Shown: piece by piece, positions 3,711 through 10,108 of the stretch
Layout: each line of letters starts with the position of its first letter
Position numbering within the stretch: position 1 is the stretch's first letter
Notes under the pieces: generated by a model
Databases searched by the model: none
Seen by the model: the letters and a program-made list of their open reading frames with translations, nothing else
What the model was told of the DNA's origin: nothing
Assembly: GCA_934089275.1 (NCBI GenBank)
Contig: CAKOJJ010000001.1
Span: forward strand, 49,918 to 113,917
Origin: an uncultured Bacilli bacterium
GTDB taxonomy: Bacteria > Bacillota_I > Bacilli_A > RF39 > UBA660
Length of the DNA: 64,000 nt
Reading direction: 5' to 3'
Position numbers and translations under genes: made by a program

Positions 3711-3944
3711 ATAATTTCACCTCTGAAGATGATTATAGCATAAAAAGAGATAATTATTATATAATCGACATAAATAGACAATAATTGCTAATTTAATAAA
3801 ATATGGTAAAATAAAGATTAAGGAGAATCAATGTGAAAGAAAGCGTTACTCTTTATTTAAAAATGATTTATTTGAAGGTAAATTTTTACTGAACGATAAG
3901 CGTAAAGTAGTTAGTTATGAAATAAGAAATATGTAGGTGATTAA

Positions 3945-4241
3945 ATGAAAATAACAGATTTACAAAATTTTATTAAGGAAAGAGATTATAAACCAGAATT
4001 AAAAGAAAAATATTTTATGAAACTAGTAGAGGAAGTTGGGGAATTAGCTGAGGTTATTAGAAAGGATAAAAGAATGATTCATAATGAAATCAAAGATTCA
4101 ATAGAGGAAGAACTTTATGATGTCTTTTACTATGTTTGTGCTTTGGCAAATTGTTATGATATCGATTTAGAAGAATGTCATAAATTAAAGTCAGAATTGA
4201 ATCAAAGAAAGTGGTATGCAAATGAAAACAATAATGGTTGA
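3945..4241 (+). CDS. MazG-like nucleotide pyrophosphohydrolase domain protein
   Basis: EEVGELAE...EELYDVFYY pattern of the MazG/HisE all-alpha NTP-PPase family; 98 aa. Confidence 0.6.
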   Translation: MKITDLQNFIKERDYKPELKEKYFMKLVEEVGELAEVIRKDKRMIHNEIKDSIEEELYDVFYYVCALANCYDIDLEECHKLKSELNQRKWYANENNNG

Positions 4242-4782
4242 TATGGACGACGTTTTAACAAACGGCAATTTTTCTAAAATACTAGAAAACTATCTTGGAT
4301 ATAAACCGGATTATAATAATATAAAAAATTATTATATACAAGATATTTTAGGGGATAAAAAAGATGACTTTTTTAATAAGTTTAAGGATATGAATTTGTA
4401 TGAAAATGCAACTTTATTTCCAGACTGCTATGATGTATTAAAACATCTTAGTGAAAAGTACAAGATTTATATATGCACAGATTATATATGGCGAGAAATC
4501 ATAGAATATGCTGGAAATAATTTAAAAAACAAGTATAACTTTTTATACAAAGCATTAGATTTCATACCACCCCAAAACTATATTTTTACTGCAGATAAAT
4601 CTATTATTAACTGCGATATTAAAATAGACGATAAAATAAAACATATAGAAGACGCCAAAATAAAATTATTATTTACAGCTTGGCACAATAAAGAATTAAC
4701 TGACGATGAATTAAAAAAGAAAAATATTATTAGAGTTAATAATTGGAAAGAAATAGAAGAAATACTACTAAAAGATTTATAA
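4216..4782 (+). CDS. HAD-superfamily 5'(3')-deoxyribonucleotidase-like protein
   Basis: N-terminal MVDMDDVL (DxDxV/T HAD motif I); 188 aa. Overlaps the upstream gene by 26 nt. Confidence 0.6.
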   Translation: MQMKTIMVDMDDVLTNGNFSKILENYLGYKPDYNNIKNYYIQDILGDKKDDFFNKFKDMNLYENATLFPDCYDVLKHLSEKYKIYICTDYIWREIIEYAGNNLKNKYNFLYKALDFIPPQNYIFTADKSIINCDIKIDDKIKHIEDAKIKLLFTAWHNKELTDDELKKKNIIRVNNWKEIEEILLKDL

Positions 4783-4815
4783 ATCAGTAATCCATAAAAG
4801 GTAAGGAGGCGCGTT

Positions 4816-5454
4816 ATGAAAGAAAGATATATGGTTGAATTTTATAACCATACAAAAAAAGACTTTGAAGAAGTTTCAAAAATAGAAAATGATTACTTTG
4901 AACCAGAGACAATAGCAAGCGTAGATCAAGTAATGTTATGGGATAATAAAAATAACGATATTCATATTTTTGTAAGAGATGTAATTTCAAACTGCATTGT
5001 TGGAGAGATAACGTTATTACCATTAAATGATGAACAGTTTATAAAATTCATTAAAAATGAGTTGTCTGACACTGAATTAAATCATAAGACTTTAGAATCC
5101 TATAAAGATAACACATGTTACAATCTCTTGTTATCTGCAATCGCGATTGATAAAAAGTATAGAGAAGAAAAAGCGGTTTTAAGTTATTTATTAAAAGGAT
5201 TGAATCAAAAAATAAATAGCCTATTAAGTAAAGAAATAAAATTTAAAAACATGTGTGCTGAAGGTCAAACAAAAGAGGGTCAAAAATTCCTTGAAAGTTT
5301 TTTGGATCTAAAAGAGAAAGGTTTAACTAAAGAAGGATACAAATTATATTCTTTTGATAATACAGATGAATTTTTAAAATGGTTTAAAAGATTCCCAAAA
5401 TATATAGAAGAATATGATAAAAAGTTTCAACTTGATAAAAAACATCTACAATAA
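4816..5454 (+). CDS. hypothetical protein (possible GNAT-like fold)
   Basis: 212-aa ORF with the RBS AAGGAGG. No firm motif. Confidence 0.4.
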   Translation: MKERYMVEFYNHTKKDFEEVSKIENDYFEPETIASVDQVMLWDNKNNDIHIFVRDVISNCIVGEITLLPLNDEQFIKFIKNELSDTELNHKTLESYKDNTCYNLLLSAIAIDKKYREEKAVLSYLLKGLNQKINSLLSKEIKFKNMCAEGQTKEGQKFLESFLDLKEKGLTKEGYKLYSFDNTDEFLKWFKRFPKYIEEYDKKFQLDKKHLQ

Positions 5455-5513
5455 AAACGTTGAACTAAATTATAAAAAAAGATCACTACAGAAGTGATTA
5501 ACTAAAACACAAA

Positions 5514-5753
5514 TTATTTAATATCATCAAATAGTTGTCTGATATCTATTTCTAGAGCATCAGCAAATTTTCCTATTGTTTCAAGTAAAGGAGTTTTATC
5601 AATTGACAAGCACTCTAAATCTCTTACATATCCATGAGTTAAACCTGTTAAATCAGCAAGTTCTTGAAGCGTATACTTTCTCATTAGACGATATTTTTTT
5701 ATATTTTTTCTAACAATTAAAGATAATTGTTCTTTGGAATATCTACTAGTCAA
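5514..5753 (-). CDS. XRE-family helix-turn-helix transcriptional regulator
   Basis: YTLQELADLTGLTHGYVRDLE is a typical Cro/C1 HTH; 79 aa. Confidence 0.7.
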   Translation of the reverse strand: MTSRYSKEQLSLIVRKNIKKYRLMRKYTLQELADLTGLTHGYVRDLECLSIDKTPLLETIGKFADALEIDIRQLFDDIK

Positions 5754-5883
5754 AGTACATCGCTTCCTTTCTAGTAAAATTATTTCATAAAATTTTTAAA
5801 AAATATGTCGCCTGTGTGAAGTTTTTATGCTATAATGAGTTTGAAAGGAAAAAAACTCGATTAAGTTTTAGTAGGAGGTTAAT

Positions 5884-6435
5884 ATGAAAAAGATTATACT
5901 TAGTTTTTTATTTACAATAGTTGCATTATTTGGAATGACAGGATGTGAAAGTGATAGTGTTCAAAGTGGCACTAACGGAAATGGTTATAATAATTCTAGC
6001 AATGATAATAAAGAATCGGACGTTAAAATAACTGAACCAGCAAACTCATCCAAAACTCATAAACTTGGTGAAGCTTTTACTTTTGATGATTTAGAGCTTA
6101 CATTTGATACAACATATACTTTTGTAACATTAAAAAACAGATATTCTGAACATAATGGAAAGTCAGTAATTAAACTTGGTGTAACAGTAAAAAATCTTGC
6201 ATCAGAAAAAAATCATTTGAACATGTATTACTATGATTTATTTGGTTCACAAGGAACTGAATTAGATGGTGTTGCAGCTTATTTTGATAACACAATTGAT
6301 TATGCTGGAGATTTAAAATCTGGAGCATCATATAAAGCATATTTTTACATATTATATGATGGTGATGGAAAATATAGCATTGATTTTGACAATTATTCAG
6401 AAGAAACTTCAGTGGAATTCGATATCAAAAAATAA
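5884..6435 (+). CDS. lipoprotein
   Basis: Signal peptide with an LFGMTGC lipobox, strong RBS GGAGG, and an upstream extended -10 TGCTATAAT. Confidence 0.7.
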   Translation: MKKIILSFLFTIVALFGMTGCESDSVQSGTNGNGYNNSSNDNKESDVKITEPANSSKTHKLGEAFTFDDLELTFDTTYTFVTLKNRYSEHNGKSVIKLGVTVKNLASEKNHLNMYYYDLFGSQGTELDGVAAYFDNTIDYAGDLKSGASYKAYFYILYDGDGKYSIDFDNYSEETSVEFDIKK

Positions 6436-6437
6436 AA

Positions 6438-6470
6438 AGATAGTTATCCTTTCAAACTATCTTTTTTTTA
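6438..6470 (+). terminator. rho-independent terminator
   Basis: 8-bp stem agatagtt/aactatct followed by a T8 run. Confidence 0.8.
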
Positions 6471-6655
6471 TTTAATAAATCAAACTTACAAAATATACAA
6501 AAATGTTTTAAATGCACAATCTTTATATTGGATTTTATATATGTTATAATTTTGATGTCTAGTAGTGGGCTAATATTACGAAACGACTTTAGTATAGAAA
6601 TTTTAAACAAAAATAACAAATGAAAAAATAATTTAAGTAGGGCAAGAGGTGTTTT

Positions 6656-7675
6656 ATGTATTCAATAGAAGAATTGGCAAATTATATATCATTTGAAAAT
6701 ATTCCATCTTCATGGACTAATTGTTATGAAGATATAAAAAAAGAATATAATCGTAATTGGTTAGATAAGTATGATTTTAGCTTGATACTTTCTTATTATG
6801 AATTTGATGATAATTTTACAAAAAGATTTTATGATGAGTTAAAAATTATAAAACAAGATGATAAGTTAAATATAATTTGTTTTATAATGTATTACATTTT
6901 ATTTTTAGCCGATATTAAAAACTATTACAACATATGGTCATGGAGATCAACTAATAAGGTTTTAAAAAACAATGGTAGTTATATGATTCCTGTTGTATCT
7001 TTGTTATGTGGGTATGAATTTCATCTTAAAGCTATTAAAATCCGAAACTTTGACCAAGAACAAATAGGATTACAGAAATATAATATTAGGTTAACTTGTA
7101 CAAATGATAGAATTAATTATGGACTTGATGGAATAAGATTCAGTCAAATGATTTGGGGATCATTCTTCATGAAAGGATTCTTAATTCAAATCGGAAGATT
7201 ACAATATGAAATAGGGGTTAATAATTTTAACAAACTTGATAAATACTTTAAAGAAAAACACCAATACATTTATATACATATACCTAAAGGTAATGATTTA
7301 AGCGAAAAAGATGTTGATGAATCCATTTGTTCAGCTCAAAAGTACATAAAGAAATATTATCCAGAATTAAAAAATGAGAAACTAGCTTATTACACACAAT
7401 CATGGTTATTAAGCCCAGAAGTTAGAGAAGTATTACCAGCAAGTAGCAATATATTAAAATTTCAAAATAGATTTAATATTATAGAATACGAAGAAAATGA
7501 TTATGATTTCTTAAATTTTGTATTCAATAGTGGCATCGAAAAAGTTGATTATATTGATTTACCAGAAACAACAACTTTACAAAGAAAATTGAAAGCAAAA
7601 CTACTAAACGGAGACAAATTACATCTAGGATTAGGTGTTTTAAAAACTTCAGAGATTTCTTCTAAAAAAAATTAA
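6656..7675 (+). CDS. hypothetical protein
   Basis: 339-aa ORF; no recognisable motif. Confidence 0.5.
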   Translation: MYSIEELANYISFENIPSSWTNCYEDIKKEYNRNWLDKYDFSLILSYYEFDDNFTKRFYDELKIIKQDDKLNIICFIMYYILFLADIKNYYNIWSWRSTNKVLKNNGSYMIPVVSLLCGYEFHLKAIKIRNFDQEQIGLQKYNIRLTCTNDRINYGLDGIRFSQMIWGSFFMKGFLIQIGRLQYEIGVNNFNKLDKYFKEKHQYIYIHIPKGNDLSEKDVDESICSAQKYIKKYYPELKNEKLAYYTQSWLLSPEVREVLPASSNILKFQNRFNIIEYEENDYDFLNFVFNSGIEKVDYIDLPETTTLQRKLKAKLLNGDKLHLGLGVLKTSEISSKKN

Positions 7676-7722
7676 GATTGGATTTTCTTGCAAAACAAAA
7701 ACATATGTAGTAATATGTATTT

Positions 7723-7831
7723 AGAGATGCAATATTGCATACAATAAAAAAGGGAACATTCAGTTTTTGCTAGTTGAATGTCTACCTGAAAATTTTGGAG
7801 ACACTTATCTTTGCAGATGAGTGTCGTTTTT
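7723..7831 (+). ncRNA. candidate antisense sRNA (putative type I antitoxin), convergent with the small toxin-like ORF
   Basis: Sigma-A-like promoter TTGCAA-N17-TAATAT at 7688-7716. Plus-strand terminator hairpin gacacttatct/agatgagtgtc followed by T5 at 7799-7831. Overlaps the 3' end of the minus-strand small-ORF transcript. Confidence 0.35.
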
Positions 7832-7845
7832 ATTTATAGGTGATA

Positions 7846-7929
7846 CTACTTCAAAGTAATGAAGAGTAAGGCTATTAACAAAATGATTATAATGATCAAG
7901 CTTAAGATTAAGAAATCTTTCTTTCCCAT
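7846..7929 (-). CDS. 27-aa hydrophobic peptide MGKKDFLILSLIIIIILLIALLFITLK (type I toxin-like)
   Basis: Not in the ORF track because it is too short. RBS GAGAGGAGG sits upstream. Minus-strand promoter TTGCAA-N18-TATAAT at 8026-7997. Minus-strand terminator hairpin 7756-7781 with a U-run at 7745-7753. Single TM helix with a charged N-terminus. Confidence 0.45.
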   Translation of the reverse strand: MGKKDFLILSLIIIIILLIALLFITLK

Positions 7930-8068
7930 ATATATCAAAAACCTCCTCTCAATAAAGAATGGAGGTAGACACTCAACAACTGATGTTCCTAGTGAAATTA
8001 TAATAAATGTTCGATATTGCTTGCAAGAAAAAAACTAAGAAAATTGATTCTTAGTTTTAATTTCACAA

Positions 8069-8145
8069 TGGGGCGAAATGTGGGAATCGAACCCACGCAT
8101 ACCGGAGCCACAATCCGGCGTGTTAACCACTTCACCAATTTCGCC
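8069..8145 (-). tRNA. tRNA-His (anticodon GTG)
   Basis: Folds by hand into a cloverleaf. The acceptor GCGAAAT/ATTTCGC, anticodon stem CCGGA/TCCGG with loop TTGTGGC, T-arm GTGGG-TTCGATT-CCCAC, discriminator C73, and an encoded G-1 and CCA. Confidence 0.9.
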
Positions 8146-8236
8146 ATCGACATATCTAATTCTATCAAATAATTTTATGTATTGCAAGTCCTTTATTATA
8201 TTAATTTTAAATGATATAATTTTAAAGGTGGATCAT

Positions 8237-9166
8237 ATGGAAAACAAATACATTATTAAATCAAATAGTTTTACATTTTTAAACGATAAAATAAAAGAAC
8301 TTAGTAAAGACTATAAAGAGATTGAAAATTTTTCTTTAGTTGAAGATTCAATAGATGATGTAATAGAAAGCATGCAACATTTTGGACTTTTTTCTGAAAG
8401 TAAATGTATAATCGTAAAAAATGTGAAATACTTTGCTGGTAATTTTTCATATGAAGAAGAATGTAATAAACTAAAAGATGCATTATCTAATTTAGATAAT
8501 GAAACAATGGTAATTCTTATTAATGATGAAGTTTTAAAGTCCAAAAAGATTGTAAAAGATTTGATTTCTTTAGGAGTAAAATTTATTGATTTAACTGGTA
8601 ACAATGAAGATGATGTTGTAACTTATATAACTGATTATTTTAAAAAAGAGAATATAAATATAAATAGAGATGCTTTATTGGAAATATATAATAATAGTTC
8701 AAACAATATAGATATAACTATCAATGAAATTGAAAGACTTTCCAATTTGAGCAATAACATAACTCATGATTTAGTTGTTTCAAATACTCAAAAAAATGAA
8801 GAAGATGTAACATTCGCTTTTTCAAATGCGATAATAGCTAAAGATTTTAATTTAGGATTTAAATATTTAGATGTATTATTAAAAAACGGAAGTGAACCAA
8901 TTAATATAGTCGCACTTCTTGCTAGTAGTTTTACCAATATTTATATGGTAAAAAGTGCTTCTGCTGATGGTTTAAGTGATGAAGAAATTGCTAAACTATT
9001 TGGATATTCTAATCCAAAAAGAGTAGGTGTTTTAAAAAGAAACGGAAAAATTTATACTCTTGATCAACTAAAAGATATAATTGTTTCTTTATCCAATCTA
9101 GATTTAAAATTAAAAAGTGGTTATGACCAAATTTATGCATTAAAAGAGTTCTTACTTGATTTGTAA
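8237..9166 (+). CDS. holA: DNA polymerase III subunit delta
   Basis: HolA-like pattern (FGLFSESKCIIVKN...). Start moved to the ATG at 8237, which has the RBS AAAGGTGG; the 8078 start in the ORF track would overlap tRNA-His. Confidence 0.75.
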   Translation: MENKYIIKSNSFTFLNDKIKELSKDYKEIENFSLVEDSIDDVIESMQHFGLFSESKCIIVKNVKYFAGNFSYEEECNKLKDALSNLDNETMVILINDEVLKSKKIVKDLISLGVKFIDLTGNNEDDVVTYITDYFKKENININRDALLEIYNNSSNNIDITINEIERLSNLSNNITHDLVVSNTQKNEEDVTFAFSNAIIAKDFNLGFKYLDVLLKNGSEPINIVALLASSFTNIYMVKSASADGLSDEEIAKLFGYSNPKRVGVLKRNGKIYTLDQLKDIIVSLSNLDLKLKSGYDQIYALKEFLLDL

Positions 9167-10108
9167 GAACTCTTTAATTTTATCAGTATTTTTAAAATTT
9201 AATTTTGCAATATCTTTTAATTTTTCTATTCCATAATTATTAACGATCTTCACACCTGTTTGATCTACGATATCGCCAGCGCCCTTTGGAACTTTCATTT
9301 TTAATTGATCTTCCATTTTTTCCATTTCTTTAATAAAAATATATCTTGAAATAATACTTGAAACAGCAACACTTAGACACTTGTCTTCGGCATGAGTAGT
9401 AAATGTAATATTTGTAACCTTGTTCGGTGTTTCCTTAATATGCTCGTAATATTTAGTAGGAAAGCAAAATTGATCAACTACAATTTTATCATAGTTATAG
9501 TTTTTGCTTTTTAATGCAAACAAAACTTTATTATGTAATATAGCTTTTACTTTATTCATATTAGTAATTCCTAAACGATTATAATCGCTTGGAGTTAAGA
9601 TATATGTAATGTGAGGAAATTCTTTTATCAAAGTAGGTGCGATAGACATAATTTTTTCATCAGTAATTTTTTTTGAATCTCTTACTCCTAAATCATAAAG
9701 GGAAGATTTTCTACTTATATCAACAAAAGATGCTGTTACAATTATAGGACCAAAATAATCTCCAGTTCCAACTTCATCAGAACCGATAGTAGAAATATTT
9801 TTAAAACGAGTATCATTTAGTTCTTCATCTTTTTTGTCTTTTTTATCTTGCTTATCCTTTAATTCTTTTTCTAAATCACGATTATTGTTGATTCTTTCTT
9901 CTTCCATCCAATAACTTGCTTCAATATCAGCACCTATACCTTGAAACATCAATTTTCCAGATTCATATAATGTGATAACACAGTCATAATCTTTAACTTG
10001 AAACACTGAATAGGGTGGATGATTTGGAAGGGCGCGATCTTTATAAAAGTCTATTACTTTATTCTTTAAATTATCTGATATCTTAAATACGATAGTTTGT
10101 TGTTTCAT
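9152..10108 (-). CDS. rnhC: ribonuclease HIII
   Basis: N-terminal DUF3378-like domain plus the RNase HII/HIII catalytic signature GSDEVGTGDYFGPI. Confidence 0.8.
   Translation of the reverse strand: MKQQTIVFKISDNLKNKVIDFYKDRALPNHPPYSVFQVKDYDCVITLYESGKLMFQGIGADIEASYWMEEERINNNRDLEKELKDKQDKKDKKDEELNDTRFKNISTIGSDEVGTGDYFGPIIVTASFVDISRKSSLYDLGVRDSKKITDEKIMSIAPTLIKEFPHITYILTPSDYNRLGITNMNKVKAILHNKVLFALKSKNYNYDKIVVDQFCFPTKYYEHIKETPNKVTNITFTTHAEDKCLSVAVSSIISRYIFIKEMEKMEDQLKMKVPKGAGDIVDQTGVKIVNNYGIEKLKDIAKLNFKNTDKIKEFLQIK

Follow-up and report, generated by a model that had tools for sequence, protein, structure and literature searches.

An intergenic region beside the tRNA-His gene of an uncultured Bacilli bacterium of the RF39 lineage (contig CAKOJJ010000001.1, of which a stretch of 64,000 nucleotides, hereafter the window, was analysed) carries a module of approximately 385 bp which is probably a genuine chromosomal type I toxin-antitoxin locus. 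Judging from the letters of the window and its relatives, the minus strand encodes a short mRNA for a hydrophobic peptide of 27 amino acids (aa), and the plus strand a convergent small RNA (sRNA), the putative antitoxin, complementary to the 3' end of that mRNA. By sequence the module falls in no described family and so appears to represent one not described before, and according to structure models it is probably built and regulated like the bsrG/SR4 system of Bacillus subtilis. A type I toxin-antitoxin reading had been put forward in an original prediction made from the window alone, and it passed every sequence-level test that was run.

The elements named in that prediction were all present (Table 1). 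The minus-strand open reading frame (ORF) of 27 codons at 7846-7929 is preceded by a Shine-Dalgarno (SD) sequence, GAGAGGAGGT at 7950-7941, and by the promoter TTGCAA-N18-TATAAT at 8026-7997 (10 of 12 consensus matches), and the unit closes with an intrinsic terminator, seen as a hairpin at approximately 7752-7787 followed by T6 at 7751-7745. On the plus strand, the promoter TTGCAA-N17-TAATAT at 7688-7716 matches the consensus at 8 of 12 positions, and a terminator hairpin at 7800-7825 is followed by GTTTTTATTT. The convergent 3' overlap of the two predicted RNAs, given earlier as about 85 nt, comes to approximately 90 nt (7745-7835); it lies entirely in the 3' untranslated region (UTR) of the mRNA and ends approximately 10 nt before the stop codon. 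The inverted repeat thought to join the two ends of the mRNA is real and longer than the 12 nt first claimed, spanning 15 nt with 93% complementarity (7773-7787 with 7963-7977). At the sequence level the plus strand can thus be described as an antisense RNA gene with its own predicted promoter, terminator and complementarity to the toxin mRNA.

A consensus scan for promoters and terminators covered 1 kb around the module, and its counts were compared with those from shuffled sequences. The toxin promoter was the top promoter-like site of the scan, and the plus-strand terminator was the sole terminator-like site (one, compared to 0.2 expected). Promoter-like sites were not enriched over shuffles (6 compared to 6.3), and a consensus match alone therefore proves nothing and needs outside support. 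For the sRNA promoter, the sequence comparisons described below indicate that this support comes from conservation and not from the consensus match.

Selection on the reading frame and conservation of the two RNAs

The window was compared with related stretches from metagenomes and metagenome-assembled genomes (MAGs), numbered L001-L066; coordinates given without such a label are those of the window. Searching for synteny with rnhC, the neighbouring gene for RNase HIII, gave 52 loci of uncultured gut Bacilli and of 'Firmicutes bacterium CAG:582', while L056-L063 came from one metagenome scan with a 20-mer of the 3' UTR, and L064-L066 from a protein search with a spurious antisense ORF. Altogether, the related gut Bacilli MAGs and metagenomes held 21 copies of the sRNA side, the window's included, and one relic; 17 of the copies have an intact toxin ORF, which corresponds to 17 of the 20 in which the ORF could be assessed.

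Type I toxins are hydrophobic membrane-type peptides of approximately 20-60 aa, made from short mRNAs of 150-400 nt (PMC8594479). The product of the minus-strand ORF is of this kind, a small hydrophobic membrane-type peptide of 27 aa on a predicted mRNA of approximately 246 nt, with a charged N-terminus, a hydrophobic helix of approximately 21 residues, a C-terminal Lys and a Kyte-Doolittle maximum of 3.68 (17-residue window). At least 12 distinct intact ORF sequences were found, nine of them analysed by site and three more from L064-L066. Among the nine, the variable sites at codon positions 1, 2 and 3 number 5, 2 and 12, respectively. The ratio of non-synonymous to synonymous differences per site (pN/pS) is 0.11 when pooled over 15 pairs of 6 representative ORFs (Sd = 91, Nd = 40) and 0.04-0.13 in diverged pairs, and the toxin frame has the lowest value among all six frames. 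Between the window and L057a, the ORF has accumulated 10 synonymous and 3 non-synonymous changes, and the amino-acid changes seen in the family are conservative or fall at the peptide ends (G2E/R, I8V, L9S, I16N, I24V, T25S/A/V/I). On these comparisons, the toxin ORF is a real coding sequence under purifying selection. It is also singular in its surroundings: among intergenic, strongly hydrophobic small ORFs preceded by an SD in the window and approximately 640 kb of related loci, only the module family and one unrelated 44-aa ORF were found. The latter (L038, 2935-3069) has a Tyr/Gly-rich N-terminus and one hydrophobic helix. Two further variants of the toxin ORF were observed. In L003a (8179-8274) the stop codon TAG has become CAG, which adds QYHL and gives a peptide of 31 aa, and in L060 (51-383) the toxin ORF lacks its own promoter and 5' UTR and instead continues, in the same frame, the N-terminal part of a gene for a MATE-like transporter; the contig is of low coverage and 1.3 kb long, and the fusion may be an assembly chimera or a true recombination.

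The same DNA also contains a plus-strand ORF of 59 aa (7859-8038, MKSKAINKMII...), which could be taken for the true gene, with the hydrophobic ORF as its shadow. It is open in most copies and has a pN/pS of 0.15, a value that is low because the wobble positions of this frame and of the toxin frame fall on the same bases. The toxin frame, in contrast, has the lower ratio (0.11 compared to 0.15), and its SD, start and stop are conserved, whereas the 59-aa frame is broken by a 2-nt indel in L057a and L057b, its C-terminal half changes along with the toxin promoter, and in a collection of 5.8 billion proteins the gene finders' calls of it come from no more than 4 contigs. Moreover, it begins just after a strong plus-strand terminator and lacks a promoter of its own. 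That it is the gene is scarcely credible, and the candidate was rejected on the L057a/b indels, the missing promoter and the position after the terminator. The ORF mimics purifying selection and is a trap for automatic annotation.

Conservation outside the ORF is concentrated in the parts of the two RNAs that are predicted to pair. As a baseline, rnhC shows a synonymous divergence of 0.56 between the window and L007. The 5' arm of the long-range helix, the arm sequences of both terminator hairpins and sRNA hairpin 1 differ from the window at 0-1 positions in L007, L057a and L005, and the 5' arm has no difference over 29 nt in L007 or L057a. Loops, the inter-hairpin spacer and both promoter spacers, on the other hand, diverge from L007 and L057a at 50-70% of their positions; in the toxin terminator, 7 of the 10 loop positions (7764-7773) differ from these two loci, whereas the arms are invariant. 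In L061b, the arm at 7774-7787 differs at 2 of 14 positions. A synonymous Leu site within the ORF (TTA to TTG) co-varies with a base of the 3' UTR in L007 and L057a/b (pair 128-150). Diversifying selection on the loops was considered and rejected, as their divergence and that of the spacers (0.3-0.7) is near the synonymous baseline of 0.23-0.56, so that neutral drift is enough.

The promoters are kept in a similar manner. The hexamers of the toxin promoter are retained in L007, where the spacer has diverged, and L057a/b, L061b and L065 have an unrelated toxin promoter, TTGATT-N17-TACAAT; both of these unrelated promoters set the predicted +1 on the same A of TAGGAAC, which is the first conserved base. 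For the sRNA promoter, the hexamers and the 17-nt spacing are kept although the spacer sequence has changed at 9 of 17 positions compared to L007, and the relatives carry TTGATT-N17-TAGTAT (L007 and L058a), a TTGAAA -35 element (L005) or TTGAAA-N17-TATGAT with TG upstream (L064). Ahead of the toxin promoter, the hairpin at 8027-8058 moves with the module, being present at internal copies far from tRNAs (L003b, L056, L058a, L061a and L062), and L006 and L007 have separate hairpins after the tRNA, ahead of the module's own. It is part of the module and probably serves as an insulating terminator, possibly a bidirectional one, as well as the terminator of tRNA-His.

It could be argued that there is no separate sRNA, and that the plus-strand hairpins are the terminator of the upstream gene combined with the reverse complement of the mRNA 3' structures, the promoter match having arisen by chance in DNA of 28% G+C (27.8% over the window). 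The 8/12 promoter in a region that is not enriched in promoter-like sites would fit this, as would the gene on the sRNA side, which is co-directional with the sRNA in each locus whose neighbours were listed. Such an arrangement also means that read-through from the neighbour would add antisense RNA and never toxin message. Against a chance promoter, conservation runs approximately 110 nt past the mRNA terminator, continues through the -35 element and stops just upstream of it, whichever gene adjoins; the hexamers and their 17-nt spacing persist as the spacer changes, and L064 gains TGnTATGAT. In the tandem of L057, no gene separates the two copies, and the sRNA side of the first (a) directly adjoins the toxin promoter of the second (b). 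Hairpin 1 lies outside the toxin mRNA and is nevertheless conserved with compensatory change, as a series from A-U through G·U to G-C, except that L064 has a different 5-bp hairpin in its place. Finally, G·U pairs are confined to the plus strand: of 363 stem cells, every one pairs when read on the sRNA strand, including 48 as G·U, whereas on the opposite strand 315 pair, these 48 become A·C mismatches and no G·U occurs. The absence of an sRNA gene is thus very improbable.

Of similarly low probability is a non-expressed repeat of approximately 385 bp, a recombination junction or structural element between islet cassettes in which the ORF and the RNAs would be incidental. Copies do lie at the junctions of differing cargo genes and flank single genes, yet the variation by codon position, the intact ORF, the conserved hexamers and SD and the strand-specific wobble pairs would be unexpected in a repeat acting at the DNA level. 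A role at junctions could, moreover, be compatible with a toxin-antitoxin function.

The distribution of the copies is narrow. Among the loci of the synteny scan, the module is confined to the closest relatives, with one copy each in L005 and L007, two copies either side of a single gene in L003, and partial copies in L004 and L006. Beyond these, L061 has two copies and a relic, and L057 (395-1143) and L065 (the whole contig) are head-to-tail tandems adjoining rpoC, with upstream sequence unlike that of the copies on the tRNA-His side. The L061 relic (9057-9208) is a strongly degenerate sRNA side just upstream of L061b (nhmmer E = 1e-7; covariance-model E = 0.04). Neither nhmmer nor the sRNA covariance model found a copy in L008-L054, where rnhC identity to the window is 51-78%, and the family therefore looks to be genus-level on present sequences. 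No paralogue was found in the window by tblastn or blastn, and blastn in distant mode found no match in plasmid or phage collections; a pattern match to the viral contig L055 was rejected as a chance 16-mer within unrelated sequence. The module being multi-copy, in tandem and also distant from tRNA-His, it cannot be a mere leader or trailer of that gene, which was the refuting case named in the original prediction.

The decayed copies point in one direction. L004 retains only the last part of the ORF, from which 15 nt are missing internally, in L006 a clean deletion starts at the upstream hairpin and extends as far as the last three codons, and in L058a the toxin ORF is frameshifted; all three retain the sRNA gene and its promoter despite the loss of the toxin. 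The reverse was never seen, with none of the 17 intact toxin ORFs lacking the sRNA side. As far as the sequences go, this asymmetry is what a toxin-antitoxin pair predicts, though the numbers are small.

Table 1. Predicted elements of the module, in window coordinates
Element	Position	Strand	Description
Upstream hairpin and T-run	8027-8058	-	A/T-rich, AAAACTAAGAA-TCAATT-TTCTTAGTTTT-TTTC; inverted repeat, 100% complementarity
Toxin promoter	8026-7997	-	-35 TTGCAA 8026-8021, N18, -10 TATAAT 8002-7997; predicted +1 = A7990
Toxin mRNA	7990-7745	-	approximately 246 nt, ends predicted; 61-nt leader, approximately 100-nt 3' UTR
5' arm of long-range helix	7962-7989	-	GGAACAUCAGUUGUUGAGUGUCUACCU; partner 7752-7787
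Anti-SD ACCUCC	7961-7966	-	ACCU also used by the long-range helix; the whole forms one strand of the SD hairpin
SD GGAGG	7942-7946	-	within GAGAGGAGGT at 7950-7941; 12 nt before ATG
Toxin ORF	7929-7846	-	27 codons and TAG (stop 7848-7846); MGKKDFLILSLIIIIILLIALLFITLK
3' arm and intrinsic terminator of toxin mRNA	7745-7787	-	hairpin ACAUUCA...UGAAUGU in 7752-7787, then U6 (7751-7745)
sRNA promoter	7688-7716	+	-35 TTGCAA 7688-7693, N17, -10 TAATAT 7711-7716; predicted +1 = A7723
Antisense sRNA, putative antitoxin	7723-7835	+	approximately 110 nt; three predicted hairpins, terminator ends in GUUUUUAUUU
sRNA parts		+	hairpin 1 7727-7740; hairpin 2 approximately 7751-7787; single-stranded spacer 7788-7799; terminator hairpin 7800-7825

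Predicted folds and proposed control of toxin translation

The 246-nt mRNA is predicted to fold far more stably than expected from its composition, with -75.2 kcal/mol compared to -43.2 +/- 4.6 kcal/mol for shuffled sequences (z = -6.96; none of 200 shuffles was as stable). In the minimum-free-energy fold, the first approximately 29 nt pair with the terminator region in a helix of approximately 26-29 bp. The inverted repeat forms the core of this helix, so that the long-range 5'-3' pairing suggested at the outset is borne out in the predicted fold. The sRNA (taken as 7722-7836, approximately 115 nt) folds into three hairpins (z = -3.5), and a consensus fold of 12 distinct homologues retains the architecture of the mRNA.

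The accessibility of the SD was assessed with ViennaRNA models of the nascent mRNA, the free full-length mRNA and an mRNA with its 3' region occupied. As long as the transcript is still growing (70-200 nt), ACCUCC (7966-7961) pairs with the entire SD, whose P(unpaired) is approximately 0.00. In the free full-length mRNA, the panhandle formed by the long-range helix takes ACCU from this pairing and the SD is partly open (P(unpaired) 0.02-0.32), and when the 3' region is occupied by the sRNA, a 6-bp helix between anti-SD and SD re-forms and P(unpaired) returns to 0.00. As modelled, the fold of the mRNA would thus restrain translation initiation, as is general for type I toxins. In seven homologous mRNAs the panhandle is kept, with 22-27 of the 29 arm nucleotides paired, and the SD is closed in every sRNA-bound model; the anti-SD of the relatives is either ACCUCC or, with a U·G wobble in the pairing, ACCUCU.

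Duplex prediction, which had been suggested as a check, gave a dimer fold of mRNA and sRNA in which the entire overlap is paired (-191.5 kcal/mol). The sRNA and the non-overlapped part of the mRNA (nt 1-150) gave a duplex of -32.6 kcal/mol compared to -35.2 +/- 4.7 kcal/mol for shuffled sRNAs, 207 of 300 of which bind equally well or better, and the duplex test hence revealed no trans-acting sRNA domain against the translation initiation region of the toxin, of the SprA1as or RNA II type. The sequence of sRNA hairpin 2, on the other hand, resembles the 5' arm of the mRNA, the arm being hairpin 2 without its loop; the two share the same sense because the repeat is inverted. As a look-alike of the 5' arm, hairpin 2 would compete with it and act by strand displacement.

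Taken together, the predictions suggest the following mechanism, in which we infer the transcription of both RNAs, the toxicity of the peptide, the stabilities of the RNAs, the role of RNase III and the order of the pairing steps. The minus strand would make an mRNA of approximately 246 nt, coding for a peptide of 27 residues with one transmembrane helix, and during transcription a local hairpin (ACCUCC with GGAGGU) would conceal the ribosome-binding site. After termination, the first approximately 28 nt would invade the mRNA's own terminator region to give a panhandle of approximately 26 bp, which would close both RNA ends and should stabilise the mRNA, and which would borrow four bases of the anti-SD and so leave the SD partly open. 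The plus strand would make, from its own promoter, an sRNA of approximately 110 nt perfectly complementary to the last approximately 90 nt of the mRNA. Pairing of the two probably begins at complementary single-stranded spacers and loops; it would displace the 5' arm, allow the full 6-bp helix of anti-SD and SD to re-form and block translation, and it would yield a long duplex open to cutting by RNase III, leading to decay of the mRNA. Were the sRNA lost, the stable mRNA would be translated and the peptide would damage the membrane.

Relation to known systems and points against a toxin-antitoxin module

No relationship to a described family could be found by sequence. A cmscan of 7000-8700 against Rfam, with E up to 10, gave tRNA as the sole significant match and no toxin-antitoxin RNA, and the search of toxin-family hidden Markov models suggested in the original prediction returned no toxin match in Pfam or NCBIfam. 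A phmmer search with a 30-aa version of the ORF product against 1.84 billion representative proteins gave 0 matches, and no record of this exact 30-aa version was found. Similarly, neither BsrG/BsrE/BsrH toxins nor SR4/SR5 antitoxins showed homology in Pfam, NCBIfam and Rfam, and there was no antitoxin RNA or toxin peptide match to TxpA/RatA, SprA1/SprA1as, SprG/SprF, YonT/SR6 or the other type I families of Rfam and Pfam. Gene callers call no gene in this intergenic gap in L001, a metagenomic contig identical to the window, and a full-text literature search for 'type I toxin-antitoxin' together with 'RF39' found no paper.

In architecture, the module is closest to bsrG/SR4. The original prediction had likened it to fst, txpA and bsrG alike, and of these likenesses the one to bsrG/SR4 alone fits in detail, whereas the direct repeats and APxxxG motif of fst/par are absent. 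In bsrG mRNA, probing has shown that helix P1 joins nt 1-35 to nt 232-262, and that binding of SR4 releases nt 1-33 and lengthens the SD pairing from 4 to 8 bp (PMC3834814); SR4 also promotes decay of the mRNA (PMC3834814), in which RNase III is involved (PMC8309996). The present module has a convergent pair with an antisense RNA over the 3' end of the toxin mRNA, a predicted long helix between the first approximately 30 nt of that mRNA and a region near its 3' end, and an SD held in a short helix. An antitoxin on the 3' strand would likewise free the 5' arm and extend the SD helix, by prediction from 2 to 6 bp, compared to the probed 4 to 8 bp in bsrG, and the long duplex would suit RNase III. 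The differences are also clear, as there is no sequence similarity, the peptide has 27 aa here compared to 38 aa and the sRNA approximately 110 nt compared to 183 nt. In the present module the terminator hairpin itself provides the 3' strand of the long helix, a part played in bsrG by a segment upstream of the terminator. Furthermore, the as-Bsr RNAs overlap the ORF (PMC8594479), whereas the predicted 3' end of the sRNA (approximately 7835) falls approximately 10 nt short of the stop codon (7846-7848). Finally, bsrG/SR4 resides in the B. subtilis prophage SPbeta, and the present module in a tRNA-His islet of uncultured gut Bacilli, which is not a prophage.

The par system (fst/RNA II of Enterococcus faecalis pAD1 and chromosomal Fst-like loci) shares the small convergent RNAs with adjacent or shared terminators, an sRNA that does not reach the ORF and a single-helix toxin of approximately 30 aa. 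A further likeness is the 5'-3' 'upstream helix', an intramolecular pairing by which the toxin RNA of par is stabilised. The module differs in that no direct repeats give its sRNA complementarity to the 5' region of the toxin mRNA, and it has no match to the Fst_toxin family of Pfam or to the par RNA II of Rfam. Fst-type peptides carry an APxxxG motif (PMC8309996), which cannot be present in a peptide with no Pro and its sole Gly at position 2. The predicted 5'-3' lock and the predicted nascent SD hairpin are, in turn, reminiscent of hok/sok and aapA/IsoA, type I systems of Gram-negative bacteria. In those systems, the full-length toxin mRNA is locked by a long-distance 5'-3' interaction, local metastable hairpins conceal the SD during transcription, and activation requires 3' trimming. 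Their antisense RNAs overlap the 5' region or the ORF (PMC8594479), in contrast to the present module, where the antisense RNA lies over the 3' partner strand of the long-range helix, and there is no sequence relationship.

A number of observations weigh against the toxin-antitoxin assignment. The peptide has no match to any known toxin family in Pfam or NCBIfam (none at E <= 0.1, with noise at E of approximately 0.9-1.7). The sRNA promoter, at 8/12, lies under the threshold of the scanner in a region without enrichment of such sites, and the sRNA terminator could also serve the co-directional neighbouring gene. The distance from SD to AUG is long and variable, at 12-15 nt (14-15 nt in L057a/b and L007), and the modelled switch is not uniform, as the SD of L007 and L064 is predicted to be closed even in the free mRNA. 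Covariation in the RNAs is not significant, the measures used being reached in 113-163 of 500 shuffles; this is because the family is shallow and its stems hardly vary, and a genus-level family leaves formal covariation tests short of power. The long-range helix has 3 broken cells beside 8 varying cells that still pair via wobble, and one change in L066 is tolerated only on the mRNA strand.

Furthermore, the selection on the ORF and the conservation of the RNAs demonstrate function and not toxicity, and many small single-helix bacterial proteins are benign. The peptide, matching no toxin family, might accordingly be a conserved non-toxic membrane protein, for example a regulatory or accessory subunit, with a highly structured mRNA tuned by a cis-antisense RNA, in which case the locus would be an instance of antisense gene regulation and no addiction or toxin module. 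Tandem and multiple copies at varied sites within a variable islet would, however, be surprising for a housekeeping subunit, as would its repeated loss with the antisense partner retained. The upstream insulating hairpin, the double lock on the SD and the closed panhandle are, moreover, hallmarks of mRNAs that must stay untranslated. A benign peptide is for these reasons considered quite unlikely, and a type I toxin-antitoxin module is the reading that we favour.

The tRNA-His islet and wider implications

The slot between tRNA-His (8069-8144, minus strand) and the formate-tetrahydrofolate ligase gene (fhs) is a variable islet, spanning approximately 3711-8068 in the window. Islet stretches in relatives were found at 8040-11100 in L003, 3650-9210 in L061, 2314-4750 in L056 and 1360-5304 in L058, and they carry genes for PNP_UDP-like, UDG-like and YunG-UDG proteins, an Mrr_cat-nSTAND3 NTPase, a reverse transcriptase and an alpha/beta-hydrolase. 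Defence-type genes are among the cargo in relatives, and the module copies lie at gene junctions. Internal copies showed no duplicated tRNA-His 3' end that would resemble an att repeat; just 5-6 nt or so (CCCCA) recur, which is not convincing. With regard to the flanks, tRNA-His in L009 (7885-7972) is predicted to be 88 nt long compared to 76 nt in the others, which could be an insertion or a prediction artefact. A mechanically called ORF of 362 aa at 8078-9166 (plus strand) spans the tRNA-His gene of the window, and the true DNA polymerase III delta gene (holA) begins at ATG 8237 and encodes 309 aa with DNA_pol3_delta domains.

Combining these observations, the modules might be working parts of a defence-type tRNA-His islet and more than selfish addiction cassettes, a joint reading that we regard as speculative and unlikely. 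Within it, a module could serve as an abortive-infection trigger, in which a phage that shuts off transcription would deplete the sRNA, so that the panhandle mRNA is translated and the membrane collapses, and the repeats of approximately 385 bp could act as junctions that both stabilise and shuffle the cargo (Mrr-nSTAND3 NTPase, reverse transcriptase and UDG-like genes). If this were true, the strand-displacing look-alike of the 5' arm would be a convergently evolved general design for antitoxins that overlap the 3' end of their target.

For the type I toxin-antitoxin module itself, the results would add a well-delimited family in a lineage of uncultured gut Bacilli with small genomes, a convincing yet unsurprising example of its kind. 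With its clear boundaries, the module of approximately 385 bp may be regarded as a compact natural RNA switch and as a marker of the variable tRNA-His islet. The design of bsrG/SR4 would here be reproduced independently, which suggests that its dual-action mechanism is recurrent and not peculiar to one Bacillus prophage.

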